Numbered from the stretch's first letter, positions 27,334 through 45,758 are shown. The stretch: DNA of 64,000 nucleotides from an uncultured Anaerolineales bacterium (GCA_964521085.1 CAZFPL010000002.1:2044-66043); one strand, 5' to 3'. Numbers and translations: made by a program. The notes: generated from the letters alone by a model not told the origin.

Positions 27334-28308
27334 TTACGCCTTGGGCTGCCGGCGGAAATATTCGATGATCTCGTCGAGGGTTTTCGCGAGCGGGATTTCC
27401 GGCTTCCAGCCGGTCACACGCTGGATTTTTTGGATATCCGGGATGCGCTGGCGCATATCCTCGAATCCGCCGTTGTAAGCCTGGCTGTAAGGGATGAATG
27501 CCAATTCGGATTTGGAGCCGGTGCGCTTTTTCACCATCTCGGCCAGCGCGCGCATGCTGATCTCTTCCGTGGAGCCGATGTTGAATACCTGCCCCTCCGC
27601 CGCCGGGTTTTCGATCAAAAGCAGAATCGCCCGGACGACGTCGCGCACGTTGCAGAAGCAGCGGGATTGCGCGCCGTCGTCGTGCACGGTGATGGGCTCA
27701 CCGTTCAGCGCCTGGCGGACGAATCGCGGGATGACCATGCCGTATTGTGCGCTCTGCCGCGGCCCGACCGTGTTGAAAAACCGGCCGATCACCACCGGCA
27801 GGTGGTGCGAGCGGTGGTAGGCCAGGGCGAGAAATTCATCCAGCGCTTTCGACGTGGCGTACGCCCAGCGGGTGACGGTCGTGGCGCCGAACACCCCGTC
27901 GTCTTCTTCTCGGAAGGGAACTTTGTTGTTCTTCCCGTAAACCTCGGAGGTCGACGCCAGAAAAACTTTCCGCCGGTAACGGCGGGCCACGCGCAGCACG
28001 GCTTCGCTGCCCATGACGTTGGTTTCGATCGTCCGAACCGGATCATTGACGATGAGCTGGACTCCCACGGCGGCGGCCAGGTGCAGGATGCGGTCGCACT
28101 CGCTTCCCAGCCGGTCCATGACAGTCTCGTTGGTGATCGTCTCCAGCGCGAAGGAGAACCGGGAATTTGCGGTAAGCGGTTCGATGTTTTCAAAACGGCC
28201 GGTCGATAGGTCGTCGATGACCGTCACCTGATCCCCGCGGGCGAGTAACGCTTCGGCCAGATGACTGCCGATGAATCCGGCGCCGCCGGTGATGAGTGTA
28301 TGGGTCAT
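27334..28308 (-). CDS. NAD-dependent nucleotide-sugar epimerase/dehydratase (extended SDR; specificity unknown)
   Basis: ORF track gives 27334..28383, trimmed to ATG 28308 (MTHTLITGGAGFIGSHL), which overlaps the upstream stop as ATGA. ASTSEVYG and catalytic YATSK are present. Confidence 0.8.
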   Translation of the reverse strand: MTHTLITGGAGFIGSHLAEALLARGDQVTVIDDLSTGRFENIEPLTANSRFSFALETITNETVMDRLGSECDRILHLAAAVGVQLIVNDPVRTIETNVMGSEAVLRVARRYRRKVFLASTSEVYGKNNKVPFREEDDGVFGATTVTRWAYATSKALDEFLALAYHRSHHLPVVIGRFFNTVGPRQSAQYGMVIPRFVRQALNGEPITVHDDGAQSRCFCNVRDVVRAILLLIENPAAEGQVFNIGSTEEISMRALAEMVKKRTGSKSELAFIPYSQAYNGGFEDMRQRIPDIQKIQRVTGWKPEIPLAKTLDEIIEYFRRQPKA

Positions 28309-31021: not shown

Positions 31022-31177
31022 GGAGGCCGGAATCTTGGGACGATTATATACCAGGGCGCGGGGGGTATCACGAATTCTCGTTCTATTCACCAACGGCGAT
31101 CGGAATGATCTCGGGGCGAGGTTGTCTCTATTTCAGATGAACACGGCGCACGACTCGTTTATCGATATGCAGCCACC

Positions 31178-32317
31178 CTATTCTTTGGAAACACCGGCAA
31201 GACTGCGGTAAACCTGCGCTGTGTGCTGCGCCATCCGTTCGACGGTGAAATCCTTCTTTACCCGCGCCTTTCCCGCGCGCCCCATCCGGTCCGCCCGCTG
31301 CCGGTCGGAAAGTAGAGTCCGAATCGACCCCGCCAGTTCGACGGGATCCCCGGGGGAGACGAGCAAACCGGTTTCCTCCGGAACAATAATCTCCGGAAGC
31401 GCGGAAACGCGCGATGCCACGATCGGTTTCCCGAGCGCCATGGCTTCCAGCGCCACCAGGCCGAATCCTTCCCAGCGCGAGGGAACTACAAGCAGATCCA
31501 CATCGGCCATGATATCCGCCGCGTCATCACGCCATCCCAGGAACATCGCCCGCCGGAGCTCCAATGATTGCGCCAGCCTCATAAGCGCCGGACGGTCCGG
31601 GCCGTCCCCCGCCAAAATGAGTCGCGCCGACGGATGTCCTTTCTCCACTTGCGCGAACGCGTGCAACAGCACGTCGACCCCCTTTTGGCGGGTCAACCGC
31701 CCAACGAATCCGATCAACTCCTCGGAGTGCGCGCCGATTTCCTTGCGGAACGCGCCGGGGTGCGCCGACCGCGTGAACGCCTCCGTATCCAACCCGTAGG
31801 GAATGACTTCGACCTTTTCCGCGGCCGCTCCTTCCACATCCACGAGAAAGCGGCGCACGGCCCGCGAGATCGCGATAATCTGGCCGGCGCGCCGGAGCGA
31901 CGGCGAGAACACCCAGCGCAGAGGAAGCCAGCGGCGGAACCGGTCATCGTTGTGGCGGGAGATCACAAGCGCCCGGTCTGGAAAAACCCGCAGCGCGAGC
32001 TCGCCGTACACTTCCCCGTGCGGAAGGTGCGCATGCAGGATCTCGAACGGTTCGCGGCGCAGGATATCGCCGAGGGCAGGCGGCAGCGCCGGATCGAGAT
32101 GCCATCGGATGGGGAGGGTGTGAACGGGGATGCGCTCCCGTTCGAACCGGGAGCGCAACGCGGCTTGCGGCCGGCGTGGATCTTCCATCAGGATCACGCT
32201 CGGATCGACATCGAACGCGCGCAAGGCGGGCAGCAGCGCGAGCAGATGGCTTTCCGCGCCGGCGATACCGACGGCTTTCAGTAGATGGTGGGTTCTTATC
32301 CGTTGCGCTTGCGGCAT
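31178..32317 (-). CDS. Glycosyltransferase family 4
   Basis: ORF track gives 31178..32656. The first 113 aa are Arg/Gly-rich and overlap another frame that holds a methyltransferase motif. Trimmed to ATG 32317 (MPQAQRIRTHHLLKAVGIAGAESHL). E-x7-E region: SRWEGFGLVALEAMALGKPIV. Confidence 0.78.
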   Translation of the reverse strand: MPQAQRIRTHHLLKAVGIAGAESHLLALLPALRAFDVDPSVILMEDPRRPQAALRSRFERERIPVHTLPIRWHLDPALPPALGDILRREPFEILHAHLPHGEVYGELALRVFPDRALVISRHNDDRFRRWLPLRWVFSPSLRRAGQIIAISRAVRRFLVDVEGAAAEKVEVIPYGLDTEAFTRSAHPGAFRKEIGAHSEELIGFVGRLTRQKGVDVLLHAFAQVEKGHPSARLILAGDGPDRPALMRLAQSLELRRAMFLGWRDDAADIMADVDLLVVPSRWEGFGLVALEAMALGKPIVASRVSALPEIIVPEETGLLVSPGDPVELAGSIRTLLSDRQRADRMGRAGKARVKKDFTVERMAQHTAQVYRSLAGVSKE

Positions 32318-32601
32318 CGCCACACCAGCAAATTGGAAAAAAGATCCGGATGAATTGCTGCGAACCGGCCGGCTTCGGGGCCGCGCCGGAGGGATTCCCC
32401 GTCGATATCCGCCCCGATGACCGGATTTCCTTGCAGAATATTGACCGTGAGTGCCCCGTCCCGGCATCCCAGATCCAATATATGCCGGCCGGCGCCGATC
32501 CAGGCCGCAAGGATCGCGATCCGCTCCCTGCCGCCGAACGTGAATCCCGAACGGTCTCCCGATTCGTGATGTGCGCGGTAGGTTTTTTCCAAGCGGCTCA
32601 T
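32296..32601 (-). pseudogene. Truncated class-I SAM-dependent methyltransferase remnant (N-terminal ~75 aa only)
   Basis: 101-aa ORF. Motif I (HILDLGCRDG) and the post-I acidic residue (VIGADID) are present. The frame then degenerates and stops inside the start of the next GT4 gene. Motifs II and III are absent. The start ATG overlaps the upstream stop as ATGA. Confidence 0.55.
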
Positions 32602-33650
32602 TGCGATCCGCTCCGCGGCAGGGAATGATCCAACAGGGCAAGGTACTTTTTGGCAAGCAATTCCCAGCGGTAGGCGCCGGACGCCTTTTTCCCGCGCGCG
32701 CCCATTTGCCCCCGGATGGTCTTCCCCCGGGCCAATGCGATCAGCCCGGCGGCGAACGCGGCCGAGTCGCGGGCGGCGATGCCCGACCTGGATTCTAAAA
32801 CAGGTTTCATTTCCTCCACATTAAAACCGACCACCGGCACTCCAGAGGCCATGTATTCCAGAACCTTGATGCTGGCGCGGCCCATCAGGTCCGCTGTGCG
32901 CGGATAAAGCCCGATATCGAAGGCGGCGACGTAATCCGTCAAATCGGGCCGGTGTTTGTAGCCCGGGAGCCGGACCCATGGATTCCGACCGGCAAACTCC
33001 CGCACTTTCCGACTGGGTTCGCCCACCAACCACAAGACGAGCCGCGGATCCTTCTTCCGTGCCCGTTCCATCACATCCAGCAGCGGGTCCACTTCATACA
33101 TTTGCTGCGCGGTCCCCGCAGGAAGCTCGTCGGAGAACTCGAAATGCGGTTGGTGCAATCCCGCCACCACCTCCTGTTTCGAAGTGCACCATGCATCCCG
33201 GATCGTCTGCATCCGTTTGGCGTTCGCGGGATGGACCGCCACTCCTTGCGGGATGACGGAGACCGGTTTGCGCAATCCCAATTCCGATAATTTCTTCGAT
33301 ACGGAATCGCTTGTGACCACGACCATCGCGACGGTCGGGGCATTAAGTGCACGAATCTCCTCCGCTGTAAACAGCGGATCGTCATGGTCGCACACTACCC
33401 TGTTCCGGATCAGTTTAATCTGCCGCCAATCGGTGCATAGAATCAGCGGGTATCGGATTCCTATCCATCGCATCAGAAGCGGCAGCCAGATCCTTCGCCG
33501 GAATCCCCGGATCGGCCACCACGGATGCAGATCCACGTAATACTGGTCGACGGTATCCAGGCGCGGTAAGAGTTCCTCGTATCGGGTGTTGTTGTGCCCC
33601 CGACTCCACGCCCCGGCCCATGCGATCCGGTTGCCCGTCGCGCGGGTCAT
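32598..33650 (-). CDS. Glycosyltransferase, GT-B fold (GT4-like, divergent)
   Basis: ORF track gives 32598..33686, trimmed to ATG 33650 (ATGA overlap with the upstream stop). C-terminal region: LYPRTADLMGRASIKVLEYMASGVPVVGF. Confidence 0.65.
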   Translation of the reverse strand: MTRATGNRIAWAGAWSRGHNNTRYEELLPRLDTVDQYYVDLHPWWPIRGFRRRIWLPLLMRWIGIRYPLILCTDWRQIKLIRNRVVCDHDDPLFTAEEIRALNAPTVAMVVVTSDSVSKKLSELGLRKPVSVIPQGVAVHPANAKRMQTIRDAWCTSKQEVVAGLHQPHFEFSDELPAGTAQQMYEVDPLLDVMERARKKDPRLVLWLVGEPSRKVREFAGRNPWVRLPGYKHRPDLTDYVAAFDIGLYPRTADLMGRASIKVLEYMASGVPVVGFNVEEMKPVLESRSGIAARDSAAFAAGLIALARGKTIRGQMGARGKKASGAYRWELLAKKYLALLDHSLPRSGSQ

Positions 33651-34840
33651 AATTCGGTCTCCGCGGAAGAAAGGAACGCCTGCCAATCCAGCGGCTGGCC
33701 GTCGATCATCCGGAGGAAAGACTCCAGTACCCGGTCCTCTGAAAAATATTCAACCTGTTTTCCGCCGGCCTTCCGCCAGGCATTCCGCAAGGCGGGATCC
33801 CGCAGTGCCTGGATGCACTTTCGGGAGAAAGCATGCACATCGCGCTGCTCCACCACGCAACCGGTCATGCTCTGCGGGAGGATATCCCGCACGCCGCCGA
33901 CATCGAACGCGACGAACGGGCAGCCGGCCGCCATCGCCTCGAGCAGCACGCGGGGAAATCCTTCCTCCTCCGATGGCATCAGGTAGAGATCGGCGGACCG
34001 GAAGTAGAGCGGCACATCCCTGTTCGCCACCCATCCGCGGAAGTCGAAATTATCAGCCAGTCCTTCCTGCTCAACGCGGCGTTTAAGTTCCTCCAGATAC
34101 GGACCCCCGCCGGCGACCAGGAATGTGACCGGGCCGGCTTCGCGGAGAACTAGCTGCGCGATCTCCGGGAGGAAGTGCGCGCCTTTGCGCGGCGCCACCC
34201 GGTGCAGGAAGAGGGCGATGGTGCGGCCCGGAGACAGGCGCAGGGTTCTCCGTGCTTCGACCCGCGAAACACTTCGGAACCGATCCAGATCGGTGAAATT
34301 CGGGAGCAAGCGGATTTTATCGCGGGGAATACCGACGTTCCGCACGTAATACTCCGCCACGCGCGGCGTTCCTGTCACGAGGTGCGTGCAGCCTCGGACG
34401 GATATCTCCAGTAAGCGTTCCTGGAAGTGCTGGCGCAGCCTTTCCCGCCAGGGCGCCCCGGCCGGCAGGCGCAGTTCCTTATAGAGGCTGCAACTCCAAT
34501 AGAAAACCCGGCCGCCGAAAAACCGGGCTATGATCGAGGCGGCGATGGCTCCGGTGTAGGAATAGTGAATGTAAAAAATCTTGATCCCCCTGCTTCGGGC
34601 TTGGAGGAAAAGAAATAATTCCTCTAAAAGCCGAAAAGCCGGGATGCGGATCTTGAGCGGACGGATTGGAAAATCCTGCGGAAGCCGGCCCGATACCCGC
34701 TCCACGAACACTTCGATTGGAATTCGATCCTGTAGTTTTTTCAGGAAACCGTACAGGTGATAGATATGCTCCGGCGAATCCGCATCGTAGCGGGGAAGCA
34801 AATACAGCAACCGGATCGTTCGCGCAGCGGGCTTCCTCAT
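33647..34840 (-). CDS. Glycosyltransferase family 4
   Basis: ORF track gives 33647..34984, trimmed to ATG 34840 (MRKPAARTIRLLYLLP; ATGA overlap). E-x7-E region: PSEEEGFPRVLLEAMAAGCPFVAFDVGG. Confidence 0.8.
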   Translation of the reverse strand: MRKPAARTIRLLYLLPRYDADSPEHIYHLYGFLKKLQDRIPIEVFVERVSGRLPQDFPIRPLKIRIPAFRLLEELFLFLQARSRGIKIFYIHYSYTGAIAASIIARFFGGRVFYWSCSLYKELRLPAGAPWRERLRQHFQERLLEISVRGCTHLVTGTPRVAEYYVRNVGIPRDKIRLLPNFTDLDRFRSVSRVEARRTLRLSPGRTIALFLHRVAPRKGAHFLPEIAQLVLREAGPVTFLVAGGGPYLEELKRRVEQEGLADNFDFRGWVANRDVPLYFRSADLYLMPSEEEGFPRVLLEAMAAGCPFVAFDVGGVRDILPQSMTGCVVEQRDVHAFSRKCIQALRDPALRNAWRKAGGKQVEYFSEDRVLESFLRMIDGQPLDWQAFLSSAETEL

Positions 34841-36000
34841 CGATTCACACTTTTCGCCGCCGTTTCGCGCCATTGAGAGACGATTCCATCGAACATCTCC
34901 GCCGGGTTGAACCGGCCGTGGATTCTTTCCAGCGCCGCGGCGCTCATCCGTGAACATTGCTCCGGTTTTGCAAGCAGTTCGCACGCGCGCCGCGCGAGCC
35001 CCTTTGCATCCTCGATCGGAACGAGGTAACCCGTCTCGCCGTCGCTCACGATGTCCGCCGCGCCGGCCGTCTCCGTCGCCACAACCGGCAGCCCGACGGC
35101 GCCCGCTTCCACCAGCACGCGGCCGAACCCTTCATAGATCGATGCGAACAGGAAAACATCCGCCGCGCCGTACATCCCCGCCAAATCCGCCGCCGCCAAC
35201 TCTCCGGTCCAGATGAGTGATCCGCCCAACCCGGATTCGGACGCGGCGCGATCCAAATCCTCCTGCGCCAGTTCCTTCCGGCCGGCGACGACCAACCGGG
35301 CTTCGGGGAACCGGGTGCGGATTTCCGCGAATGCGCGGAAAAGAAGCGGCAGCCTTTTAAACCGGACCGGGCGGCCGGCCCATAATAACATCTGTGTGCC
35401 GGGCGCGAATGACAGCCGTTCCCGCGCCTTGGCGGTTGAATCCGCCATCTGTTCTCCGGAAAACGCCGATAAATCGCACGGGACAGGCAGCACCCGCACC
35501 CGGTCGGCGGGCAGCCCAAGTTTCTCGATATAGACTTTCCGTTCACGGGTATTGACGACGCGCCAAGCATCTGCGTGCGGGAGGAGAAGGCGCGCCAGGA
35601 GGTGCAGCGTCCGGAACATCAGCGGGCGTTCCGCGATCCAGTGGGGATTGAAGAGAAAACAGGAATGATTCTGAATCAGGAGCGGGCGATTCAACGAGCG
35701 GCGGAGCCAAACGCCGGCGAGTGCCGTGGCGAACGGATCCTGGGTTGTGATCAGATCGGGGACATGCTTTCGCGCCGCCTCCTTCGCCAGCCGGTATGCG
35801 GCGAAGGAGAATCGCACGCGGCCGACACCAGTGCGGCGTACGGTCAATCCGCCGAAATCGGATACGCCGCCGGACGGGGCGTCTACGATCAGATCGATAT
35901 GCCCGCCGATGCGCCGGGCGTATTCCAAATGCCGGGCGACCGGTTCGCTTTTCGGGTCATCCAATCCGGAATCGCCCAAACCGATCATAAGCAGGTTCAT
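34837..36000 (-). CDS. Glycosyltransferase family 4
   Basis: 387 aa. ASIYEGFGRVLVEAGAVGLPVVATETAG is present. The start overlaps the upstream stop as ATGA. Confidence 0.8.
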   Translation of the reverse strand: MNLLMIGLGDSGLDDPKSEPVARHLEYARRIGGHIDLIVDAPSGGVSDFGGLTVRRTGVGRVRFSFAAYRLAKEAARKHVPDLITTQDPFATALAGVWLRRSLNRPLLIQNHSCFLFNPHWIAERPLMFRTLHLLARLLLPHADAWRVVNTRERKVYIEKLGLPADRVRVLPVPCDLSAFSGEQMADSTAKARERLSFAPGTQMLLWAGRPVRFKRLPLLFRAFAEIRTRFPEARLVVAGRKELAQEDLDRAASESGLGGSLIWTGELAAADLAGMYGAADVFLFASIYEGFGRVLVEAGAVGLPVVATETAGAADIVSDGETGYLVPIEDAKGLARRACELLAKPEQCSRMSAAALERIHGRFNPAEMFDGIVSQWRETAAKSVNR

Positions 36001-37163
36001 CGGACGGCCCTCTTTCTATCCGCAACCTCCAACAACACCGACTCGGTCTTCTCCACCATCGTCTCCCATTGGAAGCGACCCTGCAGAGTCCGCCGCCCGC
36101 CCTCGATCAGGGATGCACGCAGGTCCTGATCTGAAAGGATCCGATCGATGGCCGCCGCAAGCAAATCCTTCCGGCGAGGAGGAACGAGTAATCCACTCAC
36201 ACCGTCCTCCGCCACTTCCTTCGTCCCTCCGGCGGACGTGGTTACCACCGGAAGTCCCGCCGCATATGCTTCGAGAATGATATGCGGCAGCCCCTCATAC
36301 AGACTATTCAGGACGAAAATGTCCGCCGCTTTCATGAAGGCGAACACCTGCCGGCGCGGAACGGCGCCGGTGAAGGTCACCCTGTCCGCAGCCCCCAATC
36401 GGATCGCAAGCGCTTCCAGATTCCACCGCTCGGGTCCGTCACCGACGACCATCAGGCGCCAATCCTTCCGTTCGGCGGTTATCTCCAAAAGGCTGTCGAT
36501 CCCCTTCCAGTTGACAAGCCGGGCGACGGTGACGAGCGTCCGTCCGGAGAATGTCGGGACGGGGGCGGGTTTCGTTTCCGGCGGGGATTCCAACGAGTTA
36601 TACACCACCGTTATTCTCCGCGCGGGGATTCCCCACCCGGCGACGACGGCCATCAGGTACCGGCTGGGAGTGATGATTCGGTCCGCGTGCCTGCTCACCT
36701 TCGTCCGAAGCCATTTGACCGTTTCGGATTGCAGCGATTGGCGCCGCGATTGAAACTCTTCGACGGTTGCGCCCGCTTCGCCCCGGTTGCGCGCGCGTTC
36801 CCACGCCCAATCCCCGACGATCTTCATCACCAGCAGCCTGTGTGTGATCGCCGCGGCGATGGCCGCTTCGATGAACAATCCATTGGCGTAAATTAAATCC
36901 GCCTTCCGCGCCGAGCGCGCGATGGCGGAAATCGTCTCTATCATGCGCGGAATGCGGAACATCCCGCGGCGGAGGCGGTGAACCGGAAAGGAATACCGCG
37001 CGCCGGCGGCGGGATCATCCGCCAGTGTCACGACCTCCACGGCATGGCCGCGCCCCACCAGCGCATCCGCAATGCGGGGGACATAGGAGGCCGGGCCGCC
37101 GATATCCGGGGGAAAGATGCCGGTCGGAAGCGTGATTTGCAAACGGCCTTCGCCCGCTTTCAT
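35997..37163 (-). CDS. Glycosyltransferase family 4
   Basis: ORF track gives 35997..37451, trimmed to ATG 37163 (MKAGEGRLQITLPTGIFPPDIGGPASY; ATGA overlap). NSLYEGLPHIILEAYAAGLPVVTTSAGG is present. Confidence 0.8.
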   Translation of the reverse strand: MKAGEGRLQITLPTGIFPPDIGGPASYVPRIADALVGRGHAVEVVTLADDPAAGARYSFPVHRLRRGMFRIPRMIETISAIARSARKADLIYANGLFIEAAIAAAITHRLLVMKIVGDWAWERARNRGEAGATVEEFQSRRQSLQSETVKWLRTKVSRHADRIITPSRYLMAVVAGWGIPARRITVVYNSLESPPETKPAPVPTFSGRTLVTVARLVNWKGIDSLLEITAERKDWRLMVVGDGPERWNLEALAIRLGAADRVTFTGAVPRRQVFAFMKAADIFVLNSLYEGLPHIILEAYAAGLPVVTTSAGGTKEVAEDGVSGLLVPPRRKDLLAAAIDRILSDQDLRASLIEGGRRTLQGRFQWETMVEKTESVLLEVADRKRAVR

Positions 37164-39043
37164 TGCCGCCGCTGGCATATCGCGTACCTCCGGCTTTCCC
37201 ATACCAGGTCGTACCCGTCCCACGGGCAATCGACAGGATGGTGATCGCGGTCGGACCCGAGGAACTCGACGACTCGATAATCGTCGCCTGGAAGCGGGCC
37301 GGAAACCACGGCGTTCGAAACGGGGGACACGTACTTCAAACCGAATTCCAGCCAGCTCCAGGCCAGGGTGGGATCCGACTCGCCGTGGTAGCGGATCACG
37401 CCGATCGAAAGAACTCTCTGCGAATCCTCGCGGGCTTTCGACGCCAGCCACTCCATCGCCTGCACCTGTCCGCTTTCCCGGCCGCCGTATCCGTCGCGCA
37501 ATATGTTATTCATCGATGTCGCAGCCGATCGATAGGGGAAGAATAAAACCACCGCCAAGATCGCCCAAGCGGCTGGAATCCAACGCCGGCTTTTCCACGC
37601 CTTCGTTAATCCTTCGATGACCGCCGCCACGGCGACGCATTGCAGAGGCCAGAACCACCAGAATCTCCAGGACCGCTCGATTTCGGAAAGCCCTGCCAAT
37701 AATGCTCCGCAAACGCCGATCATGATCGCCAACACCCCCGCGTCGCGGGCGGGCAAATCCCACCGGGATGCCAACCACAAACCGAGCGCGGCGGAAACCC
37801 AGGCTATGATCCCGTAAGCCCGAAGCTGGGAAAGCAGCAAACGCCCGGGCAGGTCCCAATCCGGGTCGCGGACGAGCAGCGTTCCGACCATCGCGGGTTG
37901 GATGAGCAGGAAGAGAGCCGCGGACCCGATCCCGCAAGCCAACAGGAATTTCCAGGTTGGAATTGCGCGCAGCCGCTCCAGCAACTCCATCGTCCGCCGC
38001 CATCCGCCGCTGGACCTCCAAAACAGAGTCATCCACCCGGTCAGAAAAATCCCGTACAGAATGGCGGTGGGCCAGGCCGGTTCATCGAAGAGGAAATATC
38101 CGGAATCGAAATTCCGGTCCAGTTTGTTCATCACTGTGCACAGCCGGAGTTCCCACGCAGCCAGCCTGCCCGTTCCCGGATAAATCACGCGATTGGGATC
38201 GCTCAAGCCGGTCCATGGCATGTACGTCATGCCCATGAAATCCGATTCTCCCGGGAGGCTTGCGTAGCAATAAACCGGCGGGGAGGATGCGGTCTGCCCC
38301 GATTCCAAATCCCGGCGGAGGATCATGCTGCCGATGTCGATGAAACCGCGATCCGCTTCGAAACGCAGATAGGGAAACCAGACGATGAACAGGATCAAGA
38401 GCGTTCCCAGCAGGCTGCGCGCGGAAAGCGGGCGGCGGTAAATCAACGCGACGGCCGCCATCGCGATGAGCGCGGGCGCGATCGTGAAATACACGTACAT
38501 CCCCAACCCGGCCAGGAGCAGCGCGGCGGAGAACCAGTGCGGGGAGCGGTCGCGCACCCAGCGCATCAGGCAATACAGCATCCCGACAATAAAAAACGGG
38601 TGGCCGTTCGGCCAGAGCGTGGGCCCGGTGAACGGAAGGAATCCCGCCAAGGCGACGGCCGCCCAGGCCGCACCCCGGCCGAACCATCCGCGGACCATGA
38701 GAAAAAGGAAAAACAGGGTTCCGAAATGAAGCAGGATCGCGCCGGGAATTTCCGCGAGCCGCGGGTCCGACAGAAGCAGCACTCCCGGGAGCATCAGGAA
38801 GGACGTCCCCGGCGGACCAAACCCGGAGTAGGAAAGTCCCTGCCCGCGGTAGGGGATCACACCGTGGCGGATGAACTCGATGGCGTTCGCCTGATGGGTC
38901 TGGGTGTCGGGGCCGTCGAAAGGTCCGCTGTCGCGCCAGCCGGAGTAGACCAGAAGGCTGCTGGCGACCGTAACCGCCAGGATCCATCCCAGGTCCAGGA
39001 TTTTGCCCCACGGGAGCGGTTTTCTCATGCGGGAATCTTCCAT
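37160..39043 (-). CDS. Polytopic GT-C-like glycosyltransferase (ArnT/PMT_2-like) with ~150-aa C-terminal soluble domain
   Basis: 627 aa with about 12-14 hydrophobic helices. The first loop, FDGPDTQTHQANAIEFIRHGVIPYRGQGLSYSGFGPPGTSFLMLPG, resembles the D-x-D/E ... G ... PP(L/G) loop of ArnT/PMT-family enzymes. It is a paralogue of 54971-56950. Confidence 0.6.
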   Translation of the reverse strand: MEDSRMRKPLPWGKILDLGWILAVTVASSLLVYSGWRDSGPFDGPDTQTHQANAIEFIRHGVIPYRGQGLSYSGFGPPGTSFLMLPGVLLLSDPRLAEIPGAILLHFGTLFFLFLMVRGWFGRGAAWAAVALAGFLPFTGPTLWPNGHPFFIVGMLYCLMRWVRDRSPHWFSAALLLAGLGMYVYFTIAPALIAMAAVALIYRRPLSARSLLGTLLILFIVWFPYLRFEADRGFIDIGSMILRRDLESGQTASSPPVYCYASLPGESDFMGMTYMPWTGLSDPNRVIYPGTGRLAAWELRLCTVMNKLDRNFDSGYFLFDEPAWPTAILYGIFLTGWMTLFWRSSGGWRRTMELLERLRAIPTWKFLLACGIGSAALFLLIQPAMVGTLLVRDPDWDLPGRLLLSQLRAYGIIAWVSAALGLWLASRWDLPARDAGVLAIMIGVCGALLAGLSEIERSWRFWWFWPLQCVAVAAVIEGLTKAWKSRRWIPAAWAILAVVLFFPYRSAATSMNNILRDGYGGRESGQVQAMEWLASKAREDSQRVLSIGVIRYHGESDPTLAWSWLEFGLKYVSPVSNAVVSGPLPGDDYRVVEFLGSDRDHHPVDCPWDGYDLVWESRRYAICQRRQ

Positions 39044-39085
39044 GTTCTGTCGACAGCGCCTCGTTCGCGGAATTCGAGGACTGAT

Positions 39086-40735
39086 CTAGGGAAGAGGATA
39101 AAACCGGACGGCCACTTGTCCGGGGAGCGAGGCGGAGAATTTTTCCAGCGCCGACCGGAGTCCGGCCGCCTCTTTGGGAAGTATGGCATACCAGGTCACG
39201 GTCGCCCCGCCGCAGACGACGTTTCCGGGAATGGTCCAATCGGCGACGCGGACCCATTGGGCGGGGATGGCGGCGGCGCCGGTCTCCGGATTGTAATCGA
39301 ACCACGTGTCATAGATCACCGCGATCTGCGTGCCTGCCTTCCGGGTGACAGCGTCCAGCGATTCCGCCATCCTGCCGTTCCAATCCCCGGCCAGCCTGGC
39401 TTGCATAACCTCCCGGTCGGCCAGACCGACTAAATCCACGAGGTGAAGGTCGGCCAGATAATCGATCGCGCCGATGTCATTCGCCGCGACGACCGCACGC
39501 GGGTAATACTCCCTGAGGAAGAGACCCATCTGATACTGCTGCTGCCAGATGTTCCGGGATGCAACCGGCGTCTTCCAAGCCGCCTGAAAAGCAAGAACCC
39601 CGAGCGGAATTGCCACCAGAACAGCGGCGGAAACCGACGCTGCAAACGCGGCGGAGTTGCGGCGCAGCGCCTGCCAATTCACGGCGGGCGCGCCCAGGCA
39701 ACCGACGGCCCAGATCCCCATCGCGTTGAGATAAGCCTGATAGCGAAAATACGTGTCGCCGGCGATCCATATCGAATGCATCACCGCAACCATCAAAAAG
39801 AGAACGGCAGGCAGGACTCGGGCGTCCCAAAATGAAATCGCCGGTTCAGACCGCACGCGCAGAATCAACATCACCAGAAGCGCGATCGCCAGCGATTGCC
39901 AAACCGGAGTATGGAGGAAATCGATGTCAGTAATCGGCAGGAAGGGCCGGGCGGCCATATTCCACAAGGAAACCGGATCGGTCCATACGACACCGCTGTG
40001 CTTAATCAAGAGTGAGTTAGGCAGGAACGACCACCCCTGATGTATGGAATAGACACCATACAAGACGACCGGGAGAGCGGCGGAGAGACCGACGACCACG
40101 GCCGCCATCGGGCGCCGGCGCAGGATCATAAGCAGGTACACCGCGACTGCAACGAAACATCCTTCGTAGCGGACCGCGGCGCACAAGGCAGCCAGCAGGC
40201 CCAGCGGTGCCAGGCCGCCGGGATTGGATCTGGAGAGGATTCGCACGGCAGCAGCGCAGAAAGCCACCGCGGTAATCGCCTGGAGCATCGTTTCCATTCC
40301 ATTGAAGAGGACCGGTCCGAGCGGGAGGAACGCCATCCACCCTATCAGCATCCCCAGCGCCCAGCGGGAGGATTTCCCGCCGGCGGCCCATTCGCGGTAC
40401 AAAACGGCGATGAACACGCCCGAGACCACCAGGTTGATCAGAAAGGGGATGATCTCGCGGTCGCCGAACAACCGGAACGCGCCCGCCAGGAGAAGCGGCC
40501 AAAGGATCGAACTGGAGGACGAGGAAAATCCAAACGGGGTGACGCCGTAGACTCCCTTTTGCACAATATGTTTGGCGATCGCCATATGAATGTAGGCATC
40601 ATCAAGGTTATAGATAAAATGCCCGCCGGTCTGGCGTAGGATCAGCAGGACCATCAAGGAAGCCGCCGCAGCCCAGACCGCATACGCTGTGAGCAGGAAG
40701 GAATTGCGGCGCGTGAAATCCAAAAACCTGCTCAT
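39086..40735 (-). CDS. Polytopic membrane protein, unrecognised GT-C-like family, paralogue A (DDAYIHMAIAK loop; C-terminal soluble domain)
   Basis: 549 aa with about 11-13 TM helices. Conserved blocks shared with 40732-42363 and 42332-44005: LDDAYIHMAIAK, NGMETMLQ, VRYEG, GWSFLPNSLLIK, VAANDIGAIDYL...DLVGLA and CGGATVTWYA. Confidence 0.6.
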   Translation of the reverse strand: MSRFLDFTRRNSFLLTAYAVWAAAASLMVLLILRQTGGHFIYNLDDAYIHMAIAKHIVQKGVYGVTPFGFSSSSSSILWPLLLAGAFRLFGDREIIPFLINLVVSGVFIAVLYREWAAGGKSSRWALGMLIGWMAFLPLGPVLFNGMETMLQAITAVAFCAAAVRILSRSNPGGLAPLGLLAALCAAVRYEGCFVAVAVYLLMILRRRPMAAVVVGLSAALPVVLYGVYSIHQGWSFLPNSLLIKHSGVVWTDPVSLWNMAARPFLPITDIDFLHTPVWQSLAIALLVMLILRVRSEPAISFWDARVLPAVLFLMVAVMHSIWIAGDTYFRYQAYLNAMGIWAVGCLGAPAVNWQALRRNSAAFAASVSAAVLVAIPLGVLAFQAAWKTPVASRNIWQQQYQMGLFLREYYPRAVVAANDIGAIDYLADLHLVDLVGLADREVMQARLAGDWNGRMAESLDAVTRKAGTQIAVIYDTWFDYNPETGAAAIPAQWVRVADWTIPGNVVCGGATVTWYAILPKEAAGLRSALEKFSASLPGQVAVRFYPLP

Positions 40736-42363
40736 GGAGATTCCCCACCGGTATCTTGGCGGATTGTCTTTTCGGACGGCAGATGCTTAATGAAAGATTC
40801 GGTGCAGGCTTGCGCTTCGGCATCCTCCGTCACCTGGAATATTCCCACAGAATCGCAGATGGAACAGCGGGCCAAGATCCATCCTCCTGTGCGGATCCAG
40901 ATCTCCGCCGCCCGCGTCTGCAGGGACGGTTGGAAAATAATCGCAGTGGATACCCCCAATCGTTCCGCCTCCGCTTTCATCCATTCCGCGCGCAACTCCC
41001 CCGCGCGACGTTCGCGGAACGTGCGCAGGCTGACAAATCCGCTCAAGTCGACAATTGCGTCGCTTCCGGTCATGAATATGATTGTCCCTGGGGTGTCGGT
41101 CGCCACCGGGCCGGATGCGCACTCATCCGCCCACTCGGATGCCAATCGGCCGATCCATTTCGTACGTTCCATGGATTGACCGAATAGGATCGCACCCTGC
41201 ACGCCATGGTTGACAAGCGGGAATCCAAACAGGACGGCCAACGCGCCGCCTGCAAACAGCGTCACCACATGCTTCCGCAAATCCCGAAAGTCCGCGGGGA
41301 GGATCTTTCCGAGTGCCGGGAGAATCGCCCAGCCACCGAGCATCACCAGCCAGGCGTCGTAGCGGTATCCGCGGTTCCCGACCAGGGTGAGATATATCAG
41401 GACCGTCAGGAATGCGAGCGCCGGAGCAAGGAATTCCCGCTGGCGGAAGGAGGTCAGCCGGTTGGTCAATCCCAGCCAGGCCGGCAAAAGCGTCAGAAGC
41501 AGGACCACCGCACGCAACTCGGAATTGACCCCCAGCGTGTCCAGCGAGCGGAACACGACCGACGTCCATTGGGATAGTTCGGACGGAATCAACTCCGCGC
41601 GCCGGAGATACACCGAGGCGGGAACGGGAAGCCATCCCGCCCGCCAGGAAATAATCCCGTATACCGCAAGCGGCAGAGCAGCCGCGCACGGAAGAAAAAC
41701 GCCCGCCGTGAAATCCCGTTTAAGCAGGAGGAAGAGTGCGGCAATCGCGACCAGCACCAATCCTTCGTAGCGGGTGGAAGCAAGCAAGATGGCCGTGAGA
41801 GTCATCGGCAGAAGGCTTGCCCGTGGAGGCGCCTTCATCCGGCGCGCCCATTGCTCCAAAAAAACAATCATCAGGACCAGGAACAGCACATGTTCCATCC
41901 CGGCCGCCGCCAGCGGGACAAGCGGCAAACCGATGACCATAACCACAAGCAATACGGCTTGCGCGGCCGGCGGGATCCCAGCCTCCCGGATTGCCCGATA
42001 CGCCAGCGCGATCAGCGCGATGGATAAAAGCGCGTTGAGGATCCACGGCCAGAGTGCGCTTGCGCCCAGTAATGAGAAAACCGGGGCGAGGAGAAGCGGC
42101 CAAAACAGGGTGCCAAACGCGGATGTGAATTCCCCCGGCAGGATCTCCCACGCGAACCGATCCGCCAAGTTCTTCGCAACCACCAAACGTTGATACGCGT
42201 CTTCCTCCGGAAGCAGGATCTGGCTGGAGATGATCTGCGTAGAGAGCGTGAATCCCAGGATTATCAGGAACAATCCCCATGCCAGCCACAACGGCCAATG
42301 CTTTCGCCATCCCGAACCCCGGATTACCGTATCATCCGCCATTCGATTCCTCCGCAGGGTCAT
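40732..42363 (-). CDS. Polytopic membrane protein, same family, paralogue B (EEDAYQRLVVAK)
   Basis: 543 aa. Blocks EEDAYQRLVVAKN, AGMEHVLF, TRYEG, AGWLPVPASVYLR, and a C-terminal domain with VATDTPGTIIF...VDLSGF. The stop overlaps the start of paralogue A as ATGA. The alternative start is ATG 42342. Confidence 0.6.
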   Translation of the reverse strand: MTLRRNRMADDTVIRGSGWRKHWPLWLAWGLFLIILGFTLSTQIISSQILLPEEDAYQRLVVAKNLADRFAWEILPGEFTSAFGTLFWPLLLAPVFSLLGASALWPWILNALLSIALIALAYRAIREAGIPPAAQAVLLVVMVIGLPLVPLAAAGMEHVLFLVLMIVFLEQWARRMKAPPRASLLPMTLTAILLASTRYEGLVLVAIAALFLLLKRDFTAGVFLPCAAALPLAVYGIISWRAGWLPVPASVYLRRAELIPSELSQWTSVVFRSLDTLGVNSELRAVVLLLTLLPAWLGLTNRLTSFRQREFLAPALAFLTVLIYLTLVGNRGYRYDAWLVMLGGWAILPALGKILPADFRDLRKHVVTLFAGGALAVLFGFPLVNHGVQGAILFGQSMERTKWIGRLASEWADECASGPVATDTPGTIIFMTGSDAIVDLSGFVSLRTFRERRAGELRAEWMKAEAERLGVSTAIIFQPSLQTRAAEIWIRTGGWILARCSICDSVGIFQVTEDAEAQACTESFIKHLPSEKTIRQDTGGESP

Positions 42364-44005
42364 CCTCCGTCACCATCTGCAACTTCACCCGCACCGGAAG
42401 GTAGCTCTCGAACGCCTGCAACCGCTTGCGCAGCAAATCAGCCTGCGCCGGATCCGGGGCATAAAAAGATACGGTGTCCCCGCCGCACACATAGCAATCC
42501 GTAAAATGCCACTCGCCCACTTTGATCCAACCCTCCGGCAAGCCGCCGTACCGATCAAACCAGTAATCGTAGACGACTACCACGCGCGCGCCGCTTTCGC
42601 GGACGAGTCGTTCAATCTCGCCCGTGTCGTACGTGCCGCCCAGCTTGGCACGCGCCACATCCATCGATGCCAGCCCGTAGAGGTCGAGCAGCGGGAACTC
42701 ATTGTAAAAGGAAACGGCGCCGATGTCATTGGCCGCAACCGGTCCGGTCGGATAGTACCGGTTCAGGAAGACCGCCATCTGGTATTGCATCTCGTAAATA
42801 TTCCGCGCCGCAAGCGGCGTGTTCAGGATCCCGCCCTCGGCCCGCCCGAGGAAGGGAGAGACGAGCAGCAGTGCCAGGATCCCGATCGCGATGCGCGCGG
42901 CCATGCCCGAAGGGATACGCAGATCCCAGCCGCCCGGCGGCGCGGCGGTTTCGAGCGCCCAGACCCCGAGTGCGATGAGATAAGCGGCGTGGCGATAGAA
43001 CCATTCCATGTTGATCAGCGTGCCGTGGGCGAAGGCGATCATCAGGAAGAACGCGCCGGGAGCCAGCCGCGAAAATATTTTTTTCCGTTCTTCCCCGCGT
43101 GCTGCGAGCAGCCACGAAAGCAGGGTCAACAGAACCAGCGTCAGAATGTAATCCCGCCCCGTCAGGTAGCGGAACGGCCGGGTCAGGATCTGTGCCGGCG
43201 CTTCGGGGATGATGTCAGTGAAAGGCGCGCTCTTGATCAGCACCGAATTCGGGATCGGGTACCATCCCTGTGCAAGCGAGACACCCGCCATAAGAGCAAC
43301 CGGCAGAAAGGCCGCCGCGATCACAGCCGCCGCCAAGCCCCAGCGTTTGCGCGATGCCAGGAGGACCGCCGCCGCGCCCGCCAGGAACAATCCTTCATAA
43401 CGGATCAGGGTCAGCGCGCAAGCCAGCGCCAAAAGCCAGCCGTCGGCCTTTGCCGGTGAATCACTCCGGAGTGTGGATATCAGCCGCTCGGCGAACAGCA
43501 CAAAGATCAAAATCTGGAGCATATGCTCCATGCCGTCGAAGGTGATCGCCGCGAACGGGGCACACAAAACCAGGATTGCCAGGACCGCCGCACAAGTCAG
43601 ATCCCCCCGCCCGCGAGCCCGCATCCCGTGGTAGACAACCGCCAGCACGACGATCGATATCCCCAAATTCAAAAGGAGCGGGCTCCACTCATTCACCCCG
43701 AAGAAGGCATACGTCAGCGCGATCAGGATCGGCCAGAGGATCGAACTGGCGCAGGAGGTGAACGCGTACGAGGTCACTCCCCACACGCCGTGGCGCACGA
43801 TATTCTTGGAGATGGCCATGTGGATGTAGACGTCGTCGGATGCGTAGACCAGGCGCCCGTTGCTGATCGAAAAAATCTGCGCCAGAGTCACGCCGAAGAT
43901 CGCCAACCACAGCGCCGTCACGGCCAGGAAGGGCCAATGCCGCCGGAGGAATGACGGATCAGGACCCATGCCTGCTCCTTTCCCCAAGCACCCGAACCGC
44001 GGCAT
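42332..44005 (-). CDS. Polytopic membrane protein, same family, paralogue C (SDDVYIHMAISK)
   Basis: 557 aa. Blocks SDDVYIHMAISKNIV, DGMEHMLQ, IRYEG, GWYPIPNSVLIK, VAANDIGAVSFY...DLYGLA and CGGDTVSFYA, plus an acidic C-terminal tail. The alternative start is ATG 43969. Confidence 0.6.
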   Translation of the reverse strand: MPRFGCLGKGAGMGPDPSFLRRHWPFLAVTALWLAIFGVTLAQIFSISNGRLVYASDDVYIHMAISKNIVRHGVWGVTSYAFTSCASSILWPILIALTYAFFGVNEWSPLLLNLGISIVVLAVVYHGMRARGRGDLTCAAVLAILVLCAPFAAITFDGMEHMLQILIFVLFAERLISTLRSDSPAKADGWLLALACALTLIRYEGLFLAGAAAVLLASRKRWGLAAAVIAAAFLPVALMAGVSLAQGWYPIPNSVLIKSAPFTDIIPEAPAQILTRPFRYLTGRDYILTLVLLTLLSWLLAARGEERKKIFSRLAPGAFFLMIAFAHGTLINMEWFYRHAAYLIALGVWALETAAPPGGWDLRIPSGMAARIAIGILALLLVSPFLGRAEGGILNTPLAARNIYEMQYQMAVFLNRYYPTGPVAANDIGAVSFYNEFPLLDLYGLASMDVARAKLGGTYDTGEIERLVRESGARVVVVYDYWFDRYGGLPEGWIKVGEWHFTDCYVCGGDTVSFYAPDPAQADLLRKRLQAFESYLPVRVKLQMVTEDDPAEESNGG

Positions 44006-44867
44006 AGAACAACCGGGCCGCCTCGAGAGGGGAATCCTCCAAGCGCATGGCCCGCATCAGATCGCCCAACCCCTCGCGCACTCGTCCTCCTCGAAGGAAG
44101 ATCCGCGCCTGCCGGAAATACACCGATCGCGAAAGCGCCTTGCGGTGAAGGGCTTTAATTCCCGGCGGCAGATTTTCGTTTGCGAAATATTTTTCCAGTA
44201 CCAGCCGGTATTCTTCGCCGAATCGTTCCCCCTGGTACAGGGTTTTGGAAGCCTCCCACACCCGTGAGGAGGCCACGGTCCGCGGAATGTAGGCGCCGCC
44301 CTTCGGAAACGCGGTCCACACCCGCAGAAAATAATCGAAGTCGAGTGCGAAGTGAAGTTCTTGCGTCAATCCGCCCACGGCGGCATAGGTCGTCCGCGGT
44401 ATGAACACTCCGGGCTGCCCCATATTCTTCCCCAACAAAAGCGAGCGCAGCCCGTACTCCGCCATCTTCTTTTCGTCCAGCACCTTGCCCTGATGGTCGA
44501 TCTCCTGCACGTCGCCGTAGAGGATCGCCGCCCCGGGGTGCGCGGAATACACCGCGGCCGCGGCTTCCAGCGCGCCGGGTTCCAGCCGATCGTCGGAGTT
44601 GAGCCATCCCAGCACCCCGCCCCTGGCGCGCGCCCAACCCTTGTTGACCGCATCGGCCTGGCCGCGGTCCGGCTCGCTGACCCAGAAATCTAGCCGCCGC
44701 TCGTACTTGCGCAGGATCTCGCGGCTGGAGTCGGTCGAACCGCCGTCGATGACGATGATTTCCTTATTCGGGTGGGATTGGTCGAGCACCGAACGCAGGC
44801 ATTCCTCGAGGAAGGAATCCTGGTTATAGGACGGTATAACAATGGAAATCAGGGGAGAGGATGCCAT
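43959..44867 (-). CDS. Glycosyltransferase family 2 (GT-A)
   Basis: 302 aa. ISIVIPSYNQDSFLEECLRSVLDQ...IIVIDGGSTDSS and GWLNSDDRL (DxD region). It is a paralogue of 47170-48033 and 48050-48943. Confidence 0.85.
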   Translation of the reverse strand: MASSPLISIVIPSYNQDSFLEECLRSVLDQSHPNKEIIVIDGGSTDSSREILRKYERRLDFWVSEPDRGQADAVNKGWARARGGVLGWLNSDDRLEPGALEAAAAVYSAHPGAAILYGDVQEIDHQGKVLDEKKMAEYGLRSLLLGKNMGQPGVFIPRTTYAAVGGLTQELHFALDFDYFLRVWTAFPKGGAYIPRTVASSRVWEASKTLYQGERFGEEYRLVLEKYFANENLPPGIKALHRKALSRSVYFRQARIFLRGGRVREGLGDLMRAMRLEDSPLEAARLFYAAVRVLGERSRHGS

Positions 44868-45014: not shown

Positions 45015-45338
45015 TCATTTTTTCGCGGCTGCGGCGATGACCCTGCTGGCATCTTTCAAAGACGCGCCGAGCGCGAAATATGCGTTTAGCATCATATCGG
45101 TTGACACGTGAGGATCGCAAGATTCCATTTTAGCAATCCTCGATTGACTGGTGTTCAGCCGATCGGCAAGCTCTTCCTGGGGGATCTTTTCCTTTTTCCT
45201 GCGTTCCTTTACGGCATGACAGAGAGCCAATCGAAGTTCAACAAGGCGCTCCTCCTCCGGCGTCAGCTTAAGGAAATCGGTAACGGTACCGACAGTCCAT
45301 CCTCGGGCCTCCAAGCGCCGACGCGTCTCGCGGTTCAT
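45015..45338 (-). CDS. higA: XRE-family helix-turn-helix antitoxin (HigA-like)
   Basis: 107 aa. HTH region IPQEELADRLNTSQSRIAKMES. It lies 30 nt downstream of a RelE/Gp49-type toxin frame, the toxin-first order typical of HigBA. Confidence 0.75.
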   Translation of the reverse strand: MNRETRRRLEARGWTVGTVTDFLKLTPEEERLVELRLALCHAVKERRKKEKIPQEELADRLNTSQSRIAKMESCDPHVSTDMMLNAYFALGASLKDASRVIAAAAKK

Positions 45339-45729: not shown

Positions 45730-45758
45730 ATTATGTCATATATGACATAATTTGTCAA
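45730..45758 (-). promoter_or_regulatory. Toxin-antitoxin promoter TTGACA-N17-CATAAT with a perfect 20-bp palindromic operator in the spacer
   Basis: TTGACA is the RC of 45753-45758 and CATAAT is the RC of 45730-45735. The palindrome TTATGTCATA|TATGACATAA at 45731-45750 fills most of the spacer and overlaps the -10. The region is very A/T-rich. Confidence 0.7.

Follow-up and report, generated by a model that had tools for sequence, protein, structure and literature searches.

A tandem trio of divergent GT-C-type membrane proteins in a glycan-biosynthesis locus of an uncultured Anaerolineales bacterium

What do three neighbouring genes of one design contribute to a locus for glycan biosynthesis, when their products match no named protein family? 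The question is raised by a stretch of 64,000 nt from an uncultured Anaerolineales bacterium (Chloroflexota; GCA_964521085.1 CAZFPL010000002.1:2044-66043), hereafter the window, from whose start all coordinates are counted. Between 39086 and 44005 it carries the genes that we call A, B and C, which an original prediction, made by reading the sequence, had described as an overlapping or coupled trio of paralogues of ~550 aa with an affinity to the GT-C glycosyltransferases. Both the paralogy and the GT-C affinity are borne out here, and the trio is placed in a large prokaryotic family. We consider it fairly probable that each of the three proteins takes a polyprenyl-phosphate sugar at the outer leaflet and transfers it to an exported glycan made by the surrounding locus, with A, B and C serving different positions.

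The similarity among A, B and C is far above chance and marks them as paralogues. Alignment of A with C gives 36% identity over 542 residues (E 6e-88), that of A with B 27% over 516 residues (E 7e-36); in a three-way alignment, identity to A is 39% for C and 24% for B. The genes are as tightly packed as had been predicted. Overlaps of 11 nt join a GT2 gene to the start of C and C to B (in the latter case 32 nt with the longer B start), and 4 nt (ATGA) are common to B and A. GT2-C-B-A and then D, the next gene downstream, make up a translationally coupled operon segment, and the order GT2-C-B-A-D is kept in related Anaerolineales genomes. For C and B the open reading frame (ORF) allows a longer protein than the one we adopt. 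Homologues of C have 545 aa, the gene calls for C, B and A in a syntenic Anaerolineales metagenome-assembled genome (MAG) have 545, 536 and 549 aa, and Shine-Dalgarno sites lie 5 nt before the ATG at 43969 in C (AAGGAG) and 5 nt before the ATG at 42342 in B (GGAGGA). Taken together, these lengths and sites make the shorter coding regions the likely ones (Table 1).

The sequence blocks quoted in the original prediction were all found. The first transmembrane (TM) helix is followed by an acidic motif, which reads DDAY in A, EDAY in B and DDVY in C. GME and RYEG are present in all three proteins, and GW..P(N/A)S was also found. Two further blocks, VAANDIGA...DLxGLA and CGG.TV..YA, are confined to A and C, and the counterpart of the first of them in B is VATDTPGT...DLSGF. 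The signature of the family as a whole consists of DDxY, GME(H), RYEG, GW..PNS..K, YRY and NDIGA...DLxG.

Searches of Pfam and NCBIfam with A, B and C gave no match, and PMT and PMT_2 (PF02366, PF13231) gave nothing at E<=1. When Pfam was run on 40 aligned members of the family, none of them reached E 0.1 for any GT-C family, PF13231 included. Neither the three proteins nor these 40 members matched the Pfam hidden Markov models (HMMs) of STT3, Arabinose_trans, AftA_N, GT87 or Wzy_C/O-antigen ligase, in agreement with the earlier failure to place the trio by eye among the ArnT/PMT, Emb/Aft, STT3 or Wzy families. A family profile run against all PDB sequences had zero matches at E<=10. Stray matches to Glucos_trans_II, DUF6020, YlaH, Pex16 and AzlC, at E 0.003-0.33, were dismissed as noise.

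Relatives of the trio are plentiful. Of 1.84 billion cluster representatives (50% identity) searched with a profile, 12,152 matched at E<=1e-3 and 3,643 of them at E<=1e-30; the best matches span the full length of the protein, C-terminal domain included. At least 463 loci with a relative were found among GTDB species representatives. The bacterial hosts belong to Chloroflexota, Acidobacteriota, Bacteroidota/Ignavibacteria, Omnitrophota, Planctomycetota, Verrucomicrobiota, Patescibacteria, Zixibacteria and other phyla, and the archaeal hosts comprise Methanobacterium, Methanobacteriaceae, a Thermococcus-labelled MAG, Altiarchaeota and Bathyarchaeota. Nearly all of the GTDB relatives are MAG proteins labelled 'hypothetical protein'; automatic names were seen in one UniProt entry ('RgtA/B/C/D-like domain-containing protein') and one JGI entry ('ArnT-like'). 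The protein encoded by D, a PMT_2-type GT-C enzyme, may offer a faint connection to a named family. In hhalign, a 40-sequence alignment of the trio family (A2) matched the family of D weakly but in register (columns 38-209 against 38-205, 166 columns in all; prob 27.6%, E 6.5e-4), and D as a single sequence at prob 1.1%. Our reading is that the trio family lies outside every named family, as a strongly divergent offshoot of that part of the GT-C superfamily which resembles ArnT and PMT_2. The trio had been put forward as a genuinely undescribed component, which is too strong for a new sequence family in a well-known superfamily, with a few RgtA/B/C/D-like or ArnT-like labels and a weak PMT_2 profile match. 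Enzymes of this kind are known, and the novelty, as judged from Pfam, NCBIfam and the PDB, lies in a large family of Bacteria and Archaea without a Pfam or NCBIfam model or a solved relative detectable by sequence.

An AlphaFold2 model of C was built from A2, which holds C, A, B and diverse homologues, and reached a mean pLDDT of 91.5 and a pTM of 0.92. The first 33 Foldseek matches of this model in the PDB were all GT-C glycosyltransferases (prob 0.97-1.00, TM-scores up to 0.51). The top matches were AglB 3waj (E 1.7e-5, TM-score 0.41) and ArnT 5f15 (E 1.8e-5, TM-score 0.51); AftB 9dlf also had a TM-score of 0.51, with a root-mean-square deviation (rmsd) of 7.2 A. STT3, AftD, PglB, AftA, Pmt4, ALG9, EmbB, EmbA, PimE and ALG3 were among the further GT-C matches. 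We take A, B and C to have the GT-C(A) fold.

Topology was deduced from the model helices together with counts of Lys and Arg over the 40 sequences, following the positive-inside rule. The N-terminus and alternate short loops carry a mean of 15.3 such residues in ~62 positions, against 8.6 in the 117 positions of the other loops, two of these 8.6 being the invariant R190 and R326. The predicted protein has 11 TM helices, its N-terminus inside and its C-terminal domain outside, close to the 11-13 helices and ~150-aa domain first proposed and with the same outward placing of the acidic loop and the C-terminal domain. In this topology the predicted outer loops contain DDxY (first extracytoplasmic loop, EL1), GME (EL2), RYEG (EL3), GW..PNS..K (EL4) and YRY (EL5). 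EL4 has partly low pLDDT, and in this resembles the mobile loop of other GT-Cs.

D45-D46 come immediately ahead of model helix 46-60, in the first extracytoplasmic loop and at the tip of juxtamembrane helix 1. All GT-CA enzymes have an essential catalytic Asp at this very tip; in AftB, catalysis falls to the second residue of a DD motif, with the leaving phosphate held by two Arg (PMC12041299). Among 72 family members from many phyla, all outside the trio lineage, D45 is conserved in 100%, D46 in 99% and Y48 in 97%, and E148, R190, E192 and R326 in 100%. G235 and P240 are likewise 97-100% conserved, and so are D415, G417, D429, G432, W481 and W487 of the C-terminal domain. Neither a confident match to a non-glycosyltransferase family, nor a cytoplasmic acidic loop, nor a lack of conservation of the blocks was encountered.

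The soluble domain that follows the 11 TM helices has ~140 aa. Modelled alone (A3, residues 384-545), it forms an alpha/beta domain with six strands (pLDDT 91.7, pTM 0.88). With the isolated domain, Foldseek reached at best E 0.2 against the PDB, E 0.07 against BFVD and prob 0.38 overall, and no carbohydrate-binding fold was matched in either database. Its GT-C-related matches were weak (prob 0.2-0.33) and came from STT3 and from the C-terminal globular domain of AglB, while matches to phosphomannomutase, LANA and RND pumps were rejected as chance. The invariant N-D-I-G-A, D-L-x-G and two Trp favour a functional site over a passive cap. The domain would cap the active site from outside, and probably aids binding of the acceptor or of the donor head group. 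That each protein reads the polymer with it, as first suggested, is a conjecture, given that no known carbohydrate-binding fold was matched and that B no longer has the invariant motif.

Among enzymes of known function, ArnT (GT83; Cupriavidus metallidurans, PDB 5f15/5ezm) is the best full-length structural match alongside AftB, with a TM-score of 0.50-0.51 and E 1.8e-5. Like the trio proteins it has ~540 aa, an N-terminus inside, an acidic residue that opens the first periplasmic loop and a soluble periplasmic C-terminal domain after the last TM helix. ArnT has 13 TM helices, in comparison with the 11 predicted in the trio. Its donor is a polyprenyl-monophosphate sugar, and the trio may resemble it in this too. 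However, no PMT_2 or PMT HMM matches the trio, identity in the structural alignment is 13-15%, and the C-terminal domain of the trio alone fails to retrieve ArnT. AftB, the mycobacterial terminal beta-1,2-arabinofuranosyltransferase (GT89, PDB 9dlf/9dlh), shares the TM-score of ArnT and has the lowest rmsd (7.2 A). It carries its DD motif at the same juxtamembrane tip, and its two essential Arg (PMC12041299) may correspond to the invariant R190 and R326. Some members of the trio family also have the donor pathway of AftB alongside, with PPPRS (a UbiA-family polyprenyl-phosphate phosphoribosyltransferase), DprE1-like and DprE2-like enzymes. AftB differs from the trio in having no detectable sequence similarity and another periplasmic domain, and the window contains no arabinose pathway genes. 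To the PMT_2/RgtA-D-like proteins (PF13231, to which D belongs) the trio may be tied by the weak, in-register profile match of the N-terminal module, and to D itself by the operon; no relation extends to the C-terminal half or the soluble domain.

Triplication is peculiar to one lineage. The family HMM was used to scan 88 loci, and the members were placed in a neighbour-joining tree. Tandem triplets are restricted to the window and to genomes of related Anaerolineales (L001, L008, L009, L011, L012), with two copies in one other locus and a single copy in the rest. In the tree A, B and C form three orthogroups, each present in five genomes; A groups with C as its sister, and the branch of B is long. 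Duplication thus came before the divergence of these genomes, and all copies were retained, which argues for distinct, non-redundant roles. A similar arrangement is found in EmbA, EmbB and EmbC (GT53) and the Aft series, GT-C enzymes encoded side by side as paralogues, which extend outside the membrane a polymer with a cytoplasmic core. The Emb proteins are otherwise unlike the trio, with ~1,050-1,100 aa, carbohydrate-binding module (CBM) domains and TM-scores of 0.32-0.37, and the trio has no Arabinose_trans HMM match. By analogy with EmbA/B/C, the three proteins were first thought to take three successive linkage-specific steps; they may do so, and the orthogroup data give no order of action.

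The trio is surrounded by a glycan-biosynthesis locus of ~38 kb, which extends from 25900 to 63943 (from ~25.9 kb to the end of the window), mostly on the minus strand. It encodes two priming enzymes, one WbaP-like and one WecA-like, and ~17 glycosyltransferase-type genes (Leloir-type GT4, GT2, GT61, GT25) plus DUF1647. A gene for a short-chain dehydrogenase/reductase (SDR) of the epimerase/dehydratase kind lies between the two priming genes. The GT4 run is followed by D, A, B, C, GT2 and a small helix-turn-helix (HTH) gene, and then by GT4, GT2, DUF1647 and two GT61 genes. Later in the locus come a plus-strand GT25 gene, a methyltransferase, two unannotated polytopic proteins, a further GT2, a UDP-glucose dehydrogenase and an AsnB-type amidotransferase. 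The first polytopic protein (54971-57211) is, by its paralogy to D, a further GT-C glycosyltransferase of the locus; the long form of its ORF shares 367 nt with the GT2 gene 57211-58170, which makes a start farther downstream probable. Profile comparison of the second (58177-59796) with the trio family gave a weak, in-register match (prob 28.7%, E 6e-4). In NCBIfam it weakly matched LA_3751/LA_3752, a putative glycosyltransferase family (E 0.001), and it would probably be the sixth GT-C-like enzyme here. The locus would then probably encode six GT-C-like enzymes.

Table 1. Features of the window that bear on the trio and its locus (positions in nt from the window start).
Feature	Position	Strand	Remarks
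Gene A	39086-40735	-	549 aa; sister paralogue of C; all family motifs retained
Gene B	40732-42342 (probable; ORF to 42363)	-	536 aa (ORF 543 aa); divergent paralogue; EDAY, GME, RYEG, YRY retained; NDIGA of C-terminal domain gone
Gene C	42332-43969 (probable; ORF to 44005)	-	545 aa (ORF 557 aa); family-typical paralogue, 743 bits to family HMM
DDxY of A	40592-40603	-	codons D45-D46-A47-Y48
E-D-A-Y of B	42193-42204	-	residues 54-57 of 543-aa ORF; first Asp replaced by Glu, second Asp kept
DDxY of C	43826-43837	-	codons D45-D46-V47-Y48; N-terminal tip of juxtamembrane helix 1 (model helix 46-60); proposed catalytic Asp pair
C-terminal domain of A	39089-39505	-	NDIGA at residues 419-423, DLxG at residue 434
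C-terminal domain of B	40735-41151	-	homologous to the domains of A and C; NDIGA replaced by DTPGT; DLSG retained
C-terminal domain of C	42335-42754	-	alpha/beta, ~residues 406-545; N414-D-I-G-A418, D429-L-x-G432, W481 and W487 invariant across family
GT2 glycosyltransferase	43959-44867	-	soluble, 302 aa; upstream of C, 11-nt overlap with C start
Gene D	37160-39043	-	PMT_2-type GT-C glycosyltransferase, 627 aa; 42 nt downstream of A; syntenic in relatives
Polyprenyl glycosylphosphotransferase (Bac_transf)	25900-27321	-	TIGR03025, 363 bits, above cut-off; candidate priming enzyme
WecA/MraY-type polyprenyl-phosphate sugar-1-phosphate transferase	28305-29831	-	second candidate priming enzyme
Six GT4-type genes in tandem	29828-37451		one matches only C-terminal Glycos_transf_1-type domains
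Polytopic protein, ~746 aa	54971-57211 (probable; ORF to 57577)	-	paralogue of D, phmmer E 7.7e-83; no Pfam/NCBIfam match
Polytopic protein, 539 aa	58177-59796	-	~12 TM; LDDSGY after TM1; no Pfam match

Some smaller features of the region were also recorded. An HTH_3 (XRE-type) ORF of 107 aa (45015-45338, minus strand) sits between the GT4 and GT2 genes in a gap with a GC fraction of 0.558, compared with ~0.61. Upstream of it, at 45730-45758 on the same strand, lies a strong sigma-70-like site (TTGACA-17-CATAAT with TG, 11/12). ORF and site might serve GT2-C-B-A-D as an internal regulator or promoter; over the region as a whole, promoter-like sites do not exceed chance frequency. The plus-strand AT skew is 0.21-0.24 over 38000-44000, against ~0-0.1 elsewhere, and coincides with four consecutive minus-strand membrane-protein genes; it is expected from their T-rich hydrophobic codons and is no separate feature.

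How such a locus may operate can be outlined as follows. The cytoplasmic GT4, GT2, GT61 and GT25 enzymes would build a lipid-linked glycan, primed by the WbaP-like and/or the WecA-like enzyme. After export, the trio would add sugars from lipid-phosphate donors, with D, the 54971-57211 protein and probably the 58177-59796 protein acting alongside. The active site of each trio protein would lie on the outer face of the cytoplasmic membrane. There, the catalytic base or nucleophile could come from D45/D46 (E/D in B), the acidic pair that tips juxtamembrane helix 1, R190 (RYEG) and R326 (YRY) would hold the phosphate of the polyprenyl-phosphate sugar donor, and E148 (GME), E192 and K246 would line the sugar or acceptor site. 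Each paralogue may serve a different linkage or acceptor site; B, having lost NDIGA, may be either specialised or a partner of A or C.

Several observations weigh against this scheme. The 64-kb window has no recognisable lipid-phosphate-sugar synthase (GtrB/ArnC-type, PPPRS, DprE1/E2). Its three GT2 proteins were considered as donor synthases and set aside as generic, not GtrB/ArnC-like, and a small 4-TM ORF (24461-24898) was rejected as GtrA, being of the Phage_holin_4_2/DUF360 type. No Wzx, Wzy/Wzy_C or ABC exporter was recognised among the window genes scanned, so that the export step of the model is unsupported here; a chain-length regulator was not recognised in the window either. The family is without any biochemically studied member, and TM-scores of ~0.5 speak for a common fold, not a common specificity. 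Outside Anaerolineales, family members are mostly single genes in heterogeneous, often non-glycan neighbourhoods, and the acceptor may therefore differ from the product of the local cluster. Among 121 immediate neighbours there were GT4 (7), SGL (5), DUF362 (5), ABC (4), LPG_synthase_TM (3) and UbiA (3) genes; conservation is weak, and the SGL neighbours are limited to closely related Acidobacteriota loci. The DUF362 neighbours are those of L017 and four other loci; in L017, DUF362 lies between the PPPRS gene and that for the GT-C enzyme.

These other loci do contain clues to the donor, and they give rise to a narrower reading. The family, the trio included, would consist of arabino-, ribo- or xylofuranosyl (Araf/Ribf/Xylf) transferases that use a polyprenyl-phosphate-pentofuranose made from phosphoribosyl pyrophosphate by a UbiA-type phosphoribosyltransferase, and the trio would build an arabinan-like or ribofuranose-decorated polymer, comparable to mycobacterial arabinan synthesis and to the Citrobacter GT136 system. 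We take this to be rather unlikely for the trio. PPPRS genes lie 0-3 genes from the family gene in 6 of ~75 distinct non-trio loci, namely L013 (Thermococcus-labelled MAG), L040 (Methanobacterium), L017 (Aminicenantes), L058 (Pirellulales), L014 (Pyrinomonadaceae) and L021/L003 (Blastocatellia). By our estimate this is far above chance for a gene that occurs at most once in a minority of genomes, and the members concerned are scattered across the family tree. Five of the six UbiA enzymes score 252-294 bits against NF008977, the decaprenyl-phosphate phosphoribosyltransferase equivalog (cut-off 234), and the sixth is a HAD-UbiA fusion (PRK08238, 649 bits) with the phosphatase-PPPRS architecture of Citrobacter ORF15. 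DprE1-like oxidases accompany them in L014 and L021 (452 and 392 bits, below the 500 cut-off), and a DprE2-like SDR in L021.

The layout of these loci follows a familiar logic. Three-component pentofuranose systems consist of PPPRS, a flippase and a GT-C enzyme, as described by Kelly et al. (2024) in the work that founded GT136 (PMC11127046). In both archaeal loci (L013, 1841-5517; L040, 5776-11632) PPPRS, above the NF008977 cut-off, is followed by a flippase-like TIGR00374/LPG_synthase_TM protein and then by the family GT-C, which looks like an archaeal three-component system for a lipid-linked pentofuranose. In the Blastocatellia MAG (contig_38415; L003/L021, 7223-18942), a single-copy member stands between the HAD-UbiA PPPRS fusion and the DprE1-/DprE2-like genes, flanked by three prepilin-type (N_methyl) genes and two tetratricopeptide repeat (TPR) proteins. 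This recalls the TfpW pilin-arabinosylation system of Pseudomonas, though the GT-C family differs. By analogy, the PPPRS-linked loci appear to be organised in the same way as three-component systems and as mycobacterial arabinosylation dependent on decaprenyl-phosphate-arabinose (DPA).

The enzymes of such systems can be compared with the trio directly. GT136 (Citrobacter youngae O1 ORF12, PMC11127046), which we compared by its description only, is also of the GT-CA type, with 11 TM helices, an extra periplasmic C-terminal domain and a catalytic Asp with a nearby Tyr after TM1 (D31/E34/Y35, against D45/D46/Y48 in the trio). It is partnered with PPPRS and a flippase, as are some members of the trio family. 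Its C-terminal domain is a beta-rich CBM, whereas that of the trio is alpha/beta without a CBM match. TfpW, the pilin arabinosyltransferase of Pseudomonas aeruginosa, resembles the family as a GT-C enzyme with a DDx motif and 11 TM helices, and depends on PPPRS/DprE1/DprE2. The trio was nevertheless rejected as TfpW-like, since TfpW has 646 aa with a C-terminal TPR domain and the trio has no TPR. Other GT-C candidates turned up in two further PPPRS loci. A Rhizobium sp. SRDI969 plasmid (L089, 7794-13540) carries a HAD-UbiA fusion, of a type found on 104 plasmids, with GtrA, a flavin-dependent (FAD) oxidoreductase and an SDR, suggested by position and annotation to be DprE1-like and DprE2-like, and a 519-aa hypothetical membrane protein. 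The last has no Pfam match, is unlike the trio family and may be another unclassified GT-C candidate. A phage contig from human faeces (L090, MT837543.1, 898-5419) reads PPPRS - HAD phosphatase - SMR/EamA-like - SDR epimerase - DUF6044 (565 aa), where DUF6044 is probably the GT-C of a phage-borne pentofuranose seroconversion system. Neither the 519-aa protein nor DUF6044 has profile similarity to the trio, and both were rejected as members of its family. A blastn search for a GT136 homologue in E. coli by way of the phage contig had no match. With unrelated GT-C partners in PPPRS systems, several GT-C families have evidently been recruited to them, and the trio family would be a further one.

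Other findings lower the odds of a pentofuranose for the trio. No PPPRS, DprE1, DprE2 or flippase-like sequence was found by tblastn in the 64-kb window, and no pentose epimerase was found there. More than 90% of the loci are without such a neighbour, and the trio stands on its own branch, where the donor may have changed. A wider version, in which the whole family is a pan-prokaryotic class of polyprenyl-phosphate-pentofuranose glycosyltransferases with a new extracytoplasmic substrate-binding domain, and the trio with three further GT-Cs an assembly line for an arabinan- or ribofuranan-like polymer, is one that we regard as distinctly unlikely.

A different alternative touches B only. Translationally coupled between C and A and placed on a long branch, B could be a structural or regulatory subunit that joins A and/or C in a hetero-oligomer of the kind formed by EmbA-EmbB or Pmt1-Pmt2, the trio then acting as a single machine instead of a series of three enzymes. 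This idea is compatible with the polyprenyl-phosphate transfer scheme that we prefer and is, to our mind, unlikely. A and C retain every family-invariant residue. The B orthogroup, in contrast, has Glu or Ser in place of D45, Ala in place of N241 in 4/5 members and Arg in place of K246 in 5/5, and in the C-terminal domain N390, Q397, N414, D415 and I416 are largely substituted. The residues expected of an active enzyme are retained all the same: E148, R190, E192, G235 and P240 in 5/5, and D46 and R326 in 4/5. This leaves two readings of B, as an enzyme whose acceptor or donor head-group site has changed or as a partner subunit.

The third alternative concerns the form of the donor. As an oligosaccharyltransferase or ligase like AglB, PglB or STT3, each trio protein would take a preassembled glycan from a polyprenyl-diphosphate carrier and pass it en bloc to an acceptor, be it protein, lipid or cell wall. 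AglB 3waj is the best single Foldseek match, many STT3 and PglB entries are near the top, and STT3 and the AglB globular domain are the only GT-C-related matches, weak as they are, of the isolated C-terminal domain; moreover, the two priming phosphotransferases of the locus make diphosphate-linked intermediates. The TM-score of AglB (0.41), however, is below that of the monophosphate-using ArnT and AftB (0.51), no STT3 Pfam match was obtained and WWDxG was not found in A, B or C. The PPPRS association seen elsewhere in the family points to monophosphate donors, and three paralogues with further GT-Cs in one operon suit stepwise elaboration better. We therefore hold en bloc transfer to be improbable.

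That the trio is no glycosyltransferase at all, and instead fills the apparent export or polymerisation gap left by the missing Wzx, Wzy_C and ABC exporter as a Wzy-, Wzx- or ligase-like polymerase, flippase or transporter, is very improbable, given that no transporter or polymerase fold matched the C model in Foldseek better than E 0.6 (TM-score ~0.1 to 0.16), that no Wzy_C or O-antigen ligase Pfam match was obtained and that the motif set and its positions fit the catalytic architecture of GT-CA.

GT-C enzymes make the extracytoplasmic portions of envelope glycans, from arabinogalactan and lipopolysaccharide modifications to N- and O-glycoproteins, and the founding of GT-C families continues (GT136 in 2024). 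The family to which the trio belongs comprises thousands of sequence clusters from at least ten phyla in both prokaryotic domains, and naming it would turn thousands of 'hypothetical proteins' into annotated glycosyltransferases. It also provides residues that can be tested, namely the DD pair, E148, R190, E192, R326 and the NDIGA/DLxG site. The recurrent association with PPPRS is previously unreported, and suggests that lipid-linked pentofuranose glycosylation, so far a matter of Actinobacteria and some Proteobacteria, extends to Acidobacteriota, Planctomycetota, Aminicenantes and methanogens. To our knowledge, the envelope chemistry of Chloroflexota is poorly characterised. In this regard, a locus with probably six GT-C-like enzymes points to a complex, externally assembled envelope polymer in Chloroflexota and, should the assembly line for a pentofuranose polymer prove true, it would be the Chloroflexota counterpart of the mycobacterial machinery for arabinogalactan and lipoarabinomannan (LAM).

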